A program made the translations under genes and the position numbers. Below are positions 59,404 to 61,484 of a DNA stretch of 64,000 nucleotides, in pieces. Source of the stretch: an uncultured Bacilli bacterium (GTDB taxonomy: Bacteria; Bacillota_I; Bacilli_A; RF39; UBA660); NCBI GenBank assembly GCA_947630055.1, contig CANRGA010000001.1, forward strand, positions 10,195-74,194. Reading direction: 5' to 3'. The stretch's first letter is position 1. Each line of letters begins with the position of its first letter. The notes beneath the pieces were generated by a model, which was given only the letters and a program-made list of their open reading frames with translations, was not told the DNA's origin and made no database searches.

Positions 59404-59432
59404 TTGTAAAATAAATAATAATGTAATATACT
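59404..59432 (+). promoter_or_regulatory. Candidate promoter driving the tandem-repeat RNA
   Basis: TTGTAA, 17-nt spacer, TATACT. Confidence 0.4.
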
Positions 59433-59457
59433 TTAAATACATTCAATGAATGTATTT

Positions 59458-59557
59458 ATGTTTCTCGCTCTCGGATGGTGCGAGTAATAAATTATTCCGA
59501 TTGTCAAATGTTTCTCGCTATCGGATGGCGCGAGTAATAAATTATTCCGGTTGTAAA
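59458..59557 (+). repeat. Two tandem 50-nt direct repeats (46/50 identical), candidate type III antitoxin RNA
   Basis: atgtttctcgctctcggatggtgcgagtaataaattattccgattgtcaa / atgtttctcgctatcggatggcgcgagtaataaattattccggttgtaaa. Each contains the hairpin ctcgc...gcgag. Confidence 0.85.
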
Positions 59558-59600
59558 AGGGATATATTTTAAGGGTATATCCCTTTTTTTGTTTTTTTTT
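59557..59600 (+). terminator. Strong intrinsic terminator directly after the repeats
   Basis: aagggatata-ttttaaggg-tatatccctt followed by TTTTTGTTTTTTTTT. Confidence 0.8.
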
Positions 59601-59613
59601 AATAGAAAGCGAG

Positions 59614-59715
59614 GTGATAACAATAATTAAAGAAGGTTATTTATATCATATTAAAGAAGATTTTTTTATCTTATAGGAAAGTTCAAAAAATTGGTCAAAA
59701 ATACTTGATAATACA
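59614..59715 (+). pseudogene. Putative 5' portion of the ToxN/AbiQ-like gene, separated from its body by the IS (contains one in-frame TAG)
   Basis: GTG after GAAAGCGAG gives MITIIKEGYLYHIKEDFFIL*ESSKNWSKILDNT. This frame is continuous with 61062-61484 if 59716-61061 is removed. Confidence 0.35.
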
Positions 59716-61061
59716 TTTGTTTGCGTAATATAATTATATTATCCAGGAGGCTATGGTTTATGTTAGTTGATCGTGCATACAAATTTAGAATGTATCCAAG
59801 TGTAAAACAAGAAGAATTAATAAATAAAACTATTGGTTGTTCAAGACTTGTTTATAATATAATGTTAAGTAAGAAGAAAGATAATTCTAAACTTACTAGT
59901 TTTGATATGATAAAAGAAATACCAGAGTTATATAATGAATACCCATTTTTAAAAGAAGTAGATAGTTGTTCATTAAGATGTGCAATATTTGATTTAGAAA
60001 ATGGTTTAAATAAATATTATAAAAAACAAGGAGGATATCCAAAGTTTAAGAAAAAAGGAATAAAAGATAGTTATAGAACAAATTATATAAAAAATACATA
60101 TAAAGATAAAAAATATGAAAATATAAAAATAGATTTAAAAAATAAAATAATAACATTACCAAAATTAAAAGAAGTAAAAATAAAAGGATATCGTCATTTA
60201 GAATATATAAAGGGAAGAATAATAAATGCTACTATTGAACATATTGCTAATAAATATTATGTATCAATATGTGTAGAAGAAGAAATGCCTAATGTTAAAA
60301 CTAATACTGCTTCAGTTATTGGAATAGATATGGGGATAAAGAGTTTAATAACCACAAGTGAAGGAATAAGTTATGGAAATCCAAATTACTTAAAAAAATA
60401 TGAAAGAAAGATAAAAGGATTACAAAAAGGATTATCAAGAAAAATAAAAGGAAGTAACAATTATAATAAATATAAAATAAAACTTCAAGAAACATATAGA
60501 AAGTTACAAAATGCAAGAAGAAAAACTAACGAAGAAATAGTAAGTAGAATAATTAAAGATAATGATATAATAGTAACTGAAGATTTAAACATAAATAGTA
60601 TGATAAAAGAAGCCAAAAAATCTCTAAGAAGAAATATAATTAATTCCACAATGAGTGACATAATAAGAAGACTCAAATATAAATGTAAGTGGTTGAATAA
60701 AAAATTAATACAAGTAAATAGATATTATGCCAGTAGTCAAATATGTAGTAGTTGTGGAAATAAAAGCAAAAAAATGAAGGATATAAAAATAAGAGAATAT
60801 AAATGTCCAAAATGTGGAATAGAGATAGAAAGAGATATAAATGCAAGTATAAATATAATGTATGAAGGAATAATAAGTTACTATAAAGAGAGATATCAAA
60901 ATTAAATAAATAAATAATAAAACAATAAACAAGTACGGCAGCGACTGTCGGAAATATGGTCTGTGGAGGAGTAAAATCCTAAGAAGCAGAAAAGATAAGC
61001 CATGAGGCTTATCAAAGCAAATGAAAATAAATGTTAGTTTATTGAATTTGCTTTTGTTCTA
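59716..61061 (+). mobile_element. IS200/IS605-family (IS1341-type) element carrying tnpB only
   Basis: Ends were defined by alignment with the miniature copy at 45514-45727. No tnpA (Y1 transposase) ORF is present. Confidence 0.8.
59760..60905 (+). CDS. tnpB: TnpB RNA-guided endonuclease (RuvC + zinc ribbon)
   Basis: RuvC D (IGIDMGIKS), E (IVTEDLNI), D (RDINASINI). CSSCGN...CPKCG zinc ribbon. The ATG at 59760 follows AGGAGG; the track start at 59721 is probably too early. Confidence 0.9.
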   Translation: MLVDRAYKFRMYPSVKQEELINKTIGCSRLVYNIMLSKKKDNSKLTSFDMIKEIPELYNEYPFLKEVDSCSLRCAIFDLENGLNKYYKKQGGYPKFKKKGIKDSYRTNYIKNTYKDKKYENIKIDLKNKIITLPKLKEVKIKGYRHLEYIKGRIINATIEHIANKYYVSICVEEEMPNVKTNTASVIGIDMGIKSLITTSEGISYGNPNYLKKYERKIKGLQKGLSRKIKGSNNYNKYKIKLQETYRKLQNARRKTNEEIVSRIIKDNDIIVTEDLNINSMIKEAKKSLRRNIINSTMSDIIRRLKYKCKWLNKKLIQVNRYYASSQICSSCGNKSKKMKDIKIREYKCPKCGIEIERDINASINIMYEGIISYYKERYQN

Positions 61062-61081
61062 GTTGCAAATGATAATACATT
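60900..61081 (+). ncRNA. Omega-RNA (reRNA) region: conserved right-end scaffold plus ~20-nt flank-derived guide
   Basis: Conserved with 45590-45727. Contains the hairpin gataagcc-atga-ggcttatc. Homology between the two copies ends at 61061. Confidence 0.5.
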
Positions 61082-61484
61082 GCTTAAAAATTATTTTGAT
61101 AATACAAGACCAATGTATTTAGCATTAAAAAATAATGAAATGTTATGGCTAGTACCTTTAAGTTCTAAAATAAGTAAATATCAAAAAATCATAAATCAAA
61201 AGATAAAAAAATATGGTAAATGTAAGAGTATAATGATAAGAAAAATTGGTGGTAAATATCAGGCGGTGTTACTACAAAATGCTTTTCCTATTATAGAAAA
61301 ATATATAGATCATATACATATTCAAAAGAATATGCCAACAGTAGCTGTTAATACAGTCAAAAAAGAAATTAAAAGTAATTTAAAAGAATTATTAATATTA
61401 AAAAGTAAGGGATTTGATTTATTTTTTACTAATATTGATTATATTGAAAAAATAATGATGCAAGAATTAATTTGTAAAAAATGA
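61080..61484 (+). pseudogene. ToxN/AbiQ-like (type III toxin) ORF body, N-terminally displaced by the IS
   Basis: RPMYLALKNNEMLWLVPLSSKISKY and AVLLQNAFPIIEKY resemble the RPy.G....Y.aPLSSpK and l.nMIPv blocks of ToxN/AbiQ. Only a TTG start is available, 19 nt from the IS end. Confidence 0.45.

Follow-up and report, generated by a model that had tools for sequence, protein, structure and literature searches.

A Probable CptIN-Family Type III Toxin–Antitoxin Locus with Its Toxin Gene Split by a TnpB-Only Element in an Uncultured Gut Bacilli Bacterium

Introduction

The order of tandem repeats, terminator and toxin gene is the defining layout of type III toxin–antitoxin (TA) loci (PMC3401426). 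A locus with this layout, in which the toxin gene is interrupted by an insertion sequence (IS) carrying tnpB, is found in a 64 kb stretch of chromosomal DNA from an uncultured gut Bacilli bacterium. This stretch is referred to here as the window; all coordinates are window positions, and all parts of the locus lie on the + strand. The host DNA is AT-rich (26.5% GC), and the locus is flanked by yebC on one side and by a T-box and tyrS on the other. An initial annotation, made from the sequence, had described a ToxN/AbiQ-like abortive-infection toxin that was inactivated by the insertion and by an additional nonsense codon, with the antitoxin repeats left intact. The locus raises the questions of which type III family it belongs to, how many lesions the toxin gene carries, and what the insertion means for a system whose antitoxin is still present.

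We consider it very likely that the locus is a chromosomal type III TA system of the CptIN family, in which the toxin gene cptN is split by a TnpB-only IS605-type element, while the repeat array (cptI), the promoter and the terminator are intact. To our knowledge, none of the three type III TA families has been studied less than CptIN, for which a single complex has been solved and no biological role is known. The features of the locus are listed in Table 1.

Identity of the Toxin Gene

When the IS was removed at the ends determined below, the two pieces of the toxin gene, which the initial annotation had correctly seen to be co-linear, joined into an open reading frame (ORF) of 480 nucleotides (nt) and 159 codons with no internal stops. 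The restored ORF scored 132.8 bits with the NCBIfam model NF047359.1 (CptIN family toxin, equivalog), whose cut-off is 90, and the match extends over profile positions 1–150 of 150; no other curated NCBIfam family scored above threshold. The protein also matched the CptN toxin in the Protein Data Bank (4RMO_A), with E = 4.9e-13 for the single sequence and E = 3.8e-30 (residues 5–154) for a profile of 43 homologs. In contrast, Pfam ToxN_toxin (PF13958), the check that the initial annotation had proposed, gave 15.1–16 bits on both reconstructions of the protein, below the gathering score of 25. Since the protein passes NF047359 and fails the Pfam ToxN_toxin model, it is CptN and not ToxN or AbiQ. 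The earlier assignment was thus right about the type of toxin, and the protein blocks that it quoted are conserved CptN blocks, but the family is specifically CptIN. The toxin is indeed split, but the abortive-infection label goes too far, as CptIN has no established function of this kind: in E. coli, neither of two cptIN loci tested conferred phage resistance (PMC3401426). A search with PADLOC returned only a weak match to ShosT (E = 0.0012), which was treated as noise.

The cptN 3' fragment is identical to a 123-aa (amino acid) remnant ORF, P0174, and a 134-aa ORF lies downstream of tnpB at 61080–61484. The remnant lacks both the conserved GYLYHIK..F N-terminus and a Shine–Dalgarno (SD) sequence, and active toxin is therefore not expected in this genome. 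No second cptN was found within the 64 kb window.

Ends of the Inserted Element

In intact alleles, TTTTTTATA is joined directly to GTTGCAAATG, with nothing duplicated. The empty site is seamless and reads TTTTTTATA/GTTGC in L001, L105 and L106, where the slash marks the insertion point; the DNA of ortholog P0001 reads ...GAAGATTTTTTTATA/GTTGCAAATGATAAT... across the same site. Other copies of the IS, found through their TnpB homologs, have a left end that starts right after TTTTTAT or TTTTTAG and a right end that closes at ...TTGTTCT (L087, L088, L090 and a solo right end in the window). The empty-site alleles and the ends of these four other copies therefore define the element as 59670–61060, inserted without target duplication. 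In four of the five flanks read, the IS lies 3' of TTTAT, and in the remaining one it lies 3' of TTTAG. Another candidate for the junction, the 12-nt direct repeat TGATAATACATT (59706 and 61070), is ruled out by the intact alleles.

The initial annotation had placed the element at 59716–61061 and had counted an in-frame TAG at 59674 as a lesion of the toxin gene. With these boundaries, cptN would be an old, decaying pseudogene with two independent lesions, the insertion and the nonsense codon, and the removal of 59716–61061 does leave one frame with a single TAG. The empty-site alignments refute this account: in every intact allele, ...TTTTTTAT continues into A GTTGCAAATG, and the 46 nt at 59670–59715 have no counterpart there, but are common to IS copies at unrelated sites (L087, L088, L090). 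Correcting the junction also lifts the NF047359 score from 118.3 bits, obtained with the rough join (cut-off 90), to 132.8 bits. The TAG lies within the left end of the IS, and the IS is therefore the only lesion of cptN. We see virtually no chance that the gene was hit twice.

The Antitoxin Array

Tandem Repeats Finder (TRF) detected a repeat at 59458–59558 with a period of 50, 2.0 copies and 92% matches (score 174). The two copies are identical at 46 of 50 positions (register 59458), as the initial annotation had stated. At a TRF score of at least 80, this is the sole non-coding tandem array of the window, the others being coding repeats at 53.5–55.3 kb. Both units were also matched by a family profile in nhmmer, with E = 5e-15 for unit 1 and E = 6e-15 for unit 2.

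Each unit contains the ctcgc..gcgag hairpin noted earlier, which forms the first stem (S1, CUCGC/GCGAG), and a second stem (S2), previously overlooked, in which UCGGA in the S1 loop pairs with UCCGA in the 3' tail. The same plan is seen in CptI of Eubacterium rectale, a 45-nt H-type pseudoknot made up of S1, a one-base loop (L1), S2 and an A-rich second loop (L2) (PMC4627078). The L2 sequence is UAAUAAAUUAU in the window unit vs. AUAUAAAUG in E. rectale CptI. Across 122 distinct units from related loci, 92% of 1220 cells were in standard pairs, compared to 26–50% with slid partners, and changes on both sides of a pair occurred in 180 cells, compared to 0–47 in the slid controls. The covariation score of the observed pairing was reached by 0 of 500 shuffles. 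All five S2 pairs covary, for example 20–50 (CG in 82 units, UA in 36) and 23–47 (AU in 82, GC in 39); the fifth S1 pair is retained in only about half of the units. Taken together, the covariation supports an H-type pseudoknot fold for the cptI unit.

Unit 2 is bordered by A-rich junctions, UCA.AAUG on the 5' side and GUAA.AAGG on the 3' side, and the 5' side of unit 1 in this sub-clade has no such junction, with UAUUUAUG instead of CAAAUG. E. rectale CptI is cut after A45, at ...UUGA^AAGUUU... (PMC4627078). By analogy with this GA^AAG site, which they resemble, UCA.AAUG and GUAA.AAGG would be the points of cleavage in the window RNA.

A total of 483 relatives of the locus, the majority from uncultured gut Bacilli, were confirmed by tblastn in a species-representative genome set, and the best 80 of the 483 were examined. 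These come nearly all from uncultured gut Bacilli, "Tenericutes" or CAG-type metagenome-assembled genomes (MAGs). In 41 of 85 loci, TRF found repeats of 48–50 nt in 2.0–2.2 copies upstream of the toxin gene, but misses the repeats in many others because the two units of a locus have diverged. With a unit profile, nearly all loci with enough upstream DNA showed two adjacent units immediately before the toxin gene, making 72 distinct adjacent unit pairs; units occur in about 76 of the 80 related loci. No unit was present in L015 or in four loci cut off upstream, and L014 and L048 had one unit. The two units of one locus are often only 69–85% identical (median 83%), with compensated changes in both stems (e.g., L031 2763–2859, L019, L055 and L084), as though each locus maintained two different variants of the pseudoknot.

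Two or three cptI arrays lie close together in several relatives (L019 at 2821–2916 and 3598–3792, L053, L054, L058, L061, L062, L072 and L084). The four units found in L019 downstream of its first toxin gene suggest tandem cptIN loci.

Terminator, Promoter and Leader

The strong terminator that had been described after the repeats is confirmed. Its 15-bp stem and T-run fold with −14.7 kcal/mol (z = −3.8), a scan found two terminator-like sites where 0.1 would be expected, and in all 80 related loci that have a unit, a hairpin with a T-run likewise separates the last unit from the toxin gene. Uninterrupted homologs are thus preceded by repeats of similar period and a terminator, as expected if the original reading of the layout was right.

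The proposed promoter, TTGTAA-N17-TATACT, fits in position and is weak in sequence. Its −10 box stops 23 nt upstream of unit 1, and in 58 of 78 distinct related arrays a promoter of the form TTGAC[AT]-N16–18-TA[TG]A[TCA]T stops 20–33 nt before unit 1. It agrees with the consensus at only 9 of 12 positions, a quality of match that the scan found six times locally vs. 4.0 ± 2.2 expected, that is, at chance level. The palindrome that follows was also detected as an inverted self-match and folds with −8.3 kcal/mol (z = −4.3). Similar small hairpins are often seen upstream of the array in relatives, where 32 of 58 leaders fold at ≤ −3 kcal/mol, a count that has no shuffle control. The weaker promoter and the palindrome of the window thereby occupy the positions of the promoters and leader hairpins of its relatives. 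Candidate roles for the palindrome are those of a stabiliser or an operator.

In 47 of 72 distinct homolog loci (L008–L085), an extended −10-like motif, TGnTAnAnT, is present 3' of the terminator and 17–29 nt upstream of the cptN ATG, compared to about 7% in shuffles. The motif is absent from the sub-clade of the window. The toxin in most relatives may have its own promoter instead of depending on terminator read-through.

The repeats could in principle be some other cis element, such as a leader, an attenuator or a protein-binding repeat, and the ORF a ribonuclease with no TA relationship to them. A toxin gene with its own promoter-like motif would suit this explanation, and the clade is known from sequence only. 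However, the ORF passes a curated equivalog model for CptN, the units share both the two-stem pseudoknot plan and the AUAAAU loop with the solved CptI, and the repeat–terminator–toxin order is kept in every one of the 80 unit-bearing loci. We therefore regard a cis element unrelated to the toxin as very improbable.

Insertion Polymorphism

A protein search led to an uninterrupted ortholog (P0001/L001) from a rabbit-gut "uncultured Bacilli" MAG, which shares 93% identity with the restored protein and lies in the same order of genes, patatin–yebC–array–cptN–tyrS. A closer allele, L105, is 98.76% identical to the window after removal of the IS, with cptN intact. Intact cptN orthologs are thus available from L001, L006 and L105, and an empty site also from L106. 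The interrupted allele is common: a 123-aa remnant ORF identical to that of the window is present on 15 contigs, and at least 10 assemblies show the right junction between the IS and cptN. The window reads through both junctions, and so does L086/L095, a 19.8-kb contig obtained from a different sample, which matches the window at 99.85% identity along 6146 nt with the IS included; L096 covers 1249 nt of the IS as well as the flank, at 100% identity.

We considered the possibility that the IS within cptN is an artefact of metagenome assembly, in which a repeated IS has been wrongly joined. Many contigs do break at the IS, and one contig (L101) looks chimeric, with a mini-IS and a different upstream flank. 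Nevertheless, the spanning of both junctions in two separate contigs, the perfect identity of L096 across IS and flank, and the recurrence of the right junction in at least 10 samples make a false join scarcely credible. The mini-IS in L101 (1–400) consists of left-end parts and the right end, with most of tnpB deleted, beside a cptN remnant. Its upstream flank is unrelated, and it was not used; L101 probably results from chimeric assembly, or else carries a mini-element that belongs to a different site.

In a second lineage (L091–L093), the IS sits at the same nucleotide of cptN, in flanks that are 98.7–99.96% identical to the intact L001. The IS in this lineage is only 92.8–95% identical to that of the window, and the L092 copy is 97.3% identical to the resident copy of its own lineage, L088. 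Between the two lineages, the IS has diverged by 7.2% and the flanks by about 5%. Near-identical strains (≤1.3% difference) thus either carry the element or lack it, and one site is shared by two diverged variants of the IS. The insertion is recent or dynamic, and may reflect one old insertion followed by seamless excisions, independent site-specific insertions, or guide-directed homing. In L094 (~380–400), an L006-like allele, the poly-T of the target site has six instead of seven T residues, resulting in a frameshift; the coverage is 3.5×, and this could be an error.

That the array survives next to a broken toxin gene could also mean that cptI is kept by selection as an orphan antitoxin after toxin loss, for example as an anti-addiction device against an incoming CptN or one from another locus. 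Consistent with this, the array is intact together with its promoter and terminator; unit 1, taken with 2–3 nt of flank, has the same sequence as in L006, where the toxin is intact; the interrupted allele is carried by as many as 15 contigs; and some related genomes have several cptIN loci. However, the same intactness is expected of a recent insertion, given that the closest empty allele is 98.8% identical and the sister-lineage flank 99.96% identical. No other cptN was found in the window, and the CptI antitoxins that have been tested are specific to their own toxin (PMC4627078). Selection for an orphan antitoxin is accordingly improbable in our view, and we retain the reading of a CptIN locus interrupted by a recent or dynamic insertion.

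Weight of the Evidence

The toxin model, repeats, terminator and predicted pseudoknot together give the locus the features by which cptIN is recognised. The original proposal of a type III TA locus with its toxin split by a tnpB element and its array intact is supported by NF047359, by 4RMO and by the layout in relatives. Toxicity, RNA processing, TnpB homing and a role in phage defence we infer.

Several observations weigh against this reading. Expression, processing, toxicity and antitoxicity of cptIN in this clade are all deduced from DNA. The window unit has 50 nt, whereas E. rectale CptI has 45 nt and the family a range of 40–48 nt; the cptIN arrays published in 2012 had repeats of 40–48 nt in 1.9–3.4 copies (PMC3401426), which the window array exceeds by 2 nt in length and agrees with in copy number. 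Minimum free energy (MFE) folding of a single unit did no better than shuffles (z = 0.4 and −0.8), as expected of nested folding applied to a pseudoknot; covariation was therefore used instead, and it carries the structure by itself.

In the toxin, the active-site triad is Ser-Ser-Lys (PLSSK) instead of the Ser-Ser-Arg (PLSSR) of E. rectale CptN; within the clade, S53 never varies, and S54 and K55 hardly do. Asp81, Ser85 and Tyr104 of E. rectale CptN, which specify the scissile adenine (PMC4627078), align to Gly, a gap and His, respectively. The sub-lineage of the window also has Tyr at a nearly invariant His of the clade (H30Y; 59701 region/codon 30, 61094–61096), by which the restored gene might be impaired, or which may reflect relaxed constraint after inactivation. 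Counts of synonymous/nonsynonymous differences are 12/10 and 11/12 against two intact orthologs and 12/8 between those orthologs, too few to speak for relaxed selection.

The start codon of cptN can be placed only tentatively. Homologs start at an ATG that aligns with codon 3 of the window gene, with an SD 6–9 nt upstream, and the sub-clade of the window has no ATG there. The ribosome-binding site and start at 59614 of the initial annotation stand in part: an SD-like GAGGTGAT is present, but it overlaps the proposed GTG. The start may be GTG at 59614, ATA at 59623 or ATT at 59626.

As for the element, its right end matches no Rfam family, and no TnpA-like match was found in the window with the approximate query sequence used. 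It may belong to IS605 or, having no clear subterminal hairpin in its left end, may be IS607-related.

Anatomy of the Element and Neighbouring Features

TnpB contains the domains HTH_OrfB_IS605 (PF12323, E = 3.7e-15), OrfB_IS605 (PF01385, E = 1.3e-20) and Cas12f1-like_TNB (PF07282, E = 7e-22). No tnpA adjoins any of the five copies of the element, and the element is therefore considered non-autonomous. The left end folds weakly (−8.4 kcal/mol), with no clear subterminal hairpin. Rfam searches (E ≤ 1 on the locus, gathering threshold on the window) found no ToxI-like or omega-RNA family, the only hits being a sub-threshold T-box and one tRNA, and an exact 33-mer of the IS right end had no match in the metagenome_contigs set. 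The solo right end mentioned above, at 45575–45727, has no tnpB; it is 90% identical over 156 nt, closes with ...TTGTTCT and is intergenic between nusG (44907–45443) and an ORF at 45767–46354.

The T-box leader (61568–61687) upstream of tyrS (61729–62955) is short compared to the Rfam model (64 bits vs. a gathering score of 93, E = 9e-13). The coding tandem-repeat region (53566–55318) has periods of 36, 72, 108 and 321, TRF scores up to 1268, and Asp/Asn/Cys-rich units.

Table 1. Coordinates of the features of the cptIN locus and of the inserted element.
Feature	Position	Strand	Evidence or description
Putative promoter of antitoxin/toxin transcript	−35 TTGTAA 59404–59409, 17-nt spacer, −10 TATACT 59427–59432	+	Consensus scan; position in relatives
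5' leader hairpin, near-perfect 25-nt palindrome UAAAUACAUUCAAUGAAUGUAUUUA	59434–59458	+	Between −10 box and unit 1, at approximate transcript start
cptI unit 1, 50 nt	59456–59505	+	S1 59464–59468/59480–59484; S2 59471–59475/59496–59500; A/U-rich L2 59485–59495
cptI unit 2, 50 nt	59506–59555	+	S1 59514–59518/59530–59534; S2 59521–59525/59546–59550
Intrinsic terminator between array and toxin gene	59555–59600	+	15-bp stem 59555–59587, then T-run
SD-like GAGGTGAT	59611–59618	+	Overlaps GTG 59614
cptN 5' fragment	59614–59669	+	Codons 1–18 and 2 nt of codon 19; aligned to intact orthologs P0001/L001 and L105
IS605-type TnpB-only element, 1391 nt	59670–61060	+	Ends from L087, L088, L090 and solo copy; empty sites in L001, L105, L106
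Element left end	59670–59759	+	Holds TAG at 59674 and tnpB promoter
tnpB promoter TTGATA-18-TATAAT	59705–59734	+	11/12 consensus match, inside left end
tnpB, 381 aa	59760–60905	+	Pfam domains
Element structured right end	~60925–61060	+	Fold −41.8 kcal/mol, z = −5.4
cptN 3' fragment	61061–61484	+	Last nt of codon 19 to stop 61482–61484; conserved RP..LW..PLSSK and LLQNAFP blocks
Predicted guide-matching segment (cptN sequence abutting IS right end)	61061–61080	+	Inferred from IS200/IS605 TnpB biology

Proposed Mechanism

In the mechanism that we propose, a sigma-70 promoter would drive transcription of a short hairpin leader followed by the two cptI units of 50 nt each, and most transcripts would stop at the terminator. 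In intact relatives, the ToxN-like endoribonuclease CptN would cleave the repeat transcript at the A-rich sequences where units meet, and the processed pseudoknots would keep CptN inactive, by analogy with the structure of E. rectale CptIN, whereas free CptN would cleave cellular RNA. In the present genome, with cptN cut after codon 18, 3' of TTTAT, the toxin would be off, and the antitoxin RNA would still be made and left unprocessed.

By analogy with TnpB elements whose guide RNA and homing have been studied (PMC8612924; bioRxiv 10.1101/2023.03.14.532601), the structured right end of the IS may give rise to a guide RNA with the adjoining cptN sequence as its spacer. TTTAT (59665–59669) would then be the transposon-associated motif (TAM) and 61061–61080 the target in an empty allele, making TTTAT-AGTTGCAAATGATAAT (also written TTTAT-AGTTGCAAATGATAATAC) the candidate TnpB target. 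Cutting of empty alleles by TnpB would favour retention of the insertion.

A bolder extension is that the element acts on the toxin gene as a reversible, guided switch, or as a drive, in which seamless excision restores cptN and the guide, with cptN codons 19–25 next to TTTAT as its spacer, directs TnpB to cut intact alleles, whether restored or incoming. If so, populations would stay polymorphic between a toxin-on and a toxin-off state and would keep the antitoxin array in either, and the footprint would be a diverged IS at the same nucleotide in a second lineage and near-identical strains that differ only by the element. We put this forward tentatively and think it rather unlikely.

Comparison with Known Systems

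Among the other type III families, TenpIN of Photorhabdus luminescens is similar in having long repeats (39–57 nt) in about two copies, but no sequence match between its toxin and that of the window was found. ToxIN of Pectobacterium atrosepticum and AbiQ/antiQ of Lactococcus share tandem RNA repeats, a terminator, an endoribonuclease that processes its own antitoxin, and a related PL(S/T)S active-site region. They differ in that the window protein fails Pfam ToxN_toxin, in that ToxI has 36-nt units in 5.5 copies and forms heterohexamers, and in that ToxIN and AbiQ are proven abortive-infection systems, which CptIN is not.

The inserted element resembles the TnpB-only members of IS200/IS605 (IS1341-like elements, the TnpB of ISDra2, and the IStrons/IS605 elements of Geobacillus) in its HTH_OrfB_IS605, OrfB_IS605 (RuvC) and zinc-ribbon domains, in inserting 3' of a short motif (TTTAT/TTTAG) with no duplication of the target, in its seamless empty sites, and in its highly structured right end that abuts the flank. 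It differs in having no TnpA seen nearby, no clear left-end hairpin and no Rfam match for the right end, and its guide and TAM are predicted by analogy. The presence and absence of this IS at one nucleotide of a toxin gene offers a natural case in which to examine TnpB-guided retention of an insertion.

The closest counterpart is CptIN of Coprococcus catus and E. rectale (4RMO; NF047359), with which the locus shares whole-length toxin homology, a toxin of about 155–160 aa, a chromosomal location, and about two repeats, a terminator and a toxin gene in this order. The unit likewise forms an H-type pseudoknot in which L1 is short and the A/U-rich L2 contains AUAAAU, and its junctions are A-rich like GA^AAG. 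Apart from the longer unit and the substitutions in the active-site triad and in the adenine-specifying residues described above, the differences are the host, uncultured gut Bacilli vs. Clostridia, the non-ATG start codon of the sub-clade, and the interruption by the IS. The accepted workings of type III systems and of TnpB elements are unchanged by this locus, which a specialist would not find surprising: it is a disrupted further member of the known CptIN family. What the comparative data add to that family is a pseudoknot model, supported by covariation, for a CptI variant of 50 nt in a large clade of 483 relatives.

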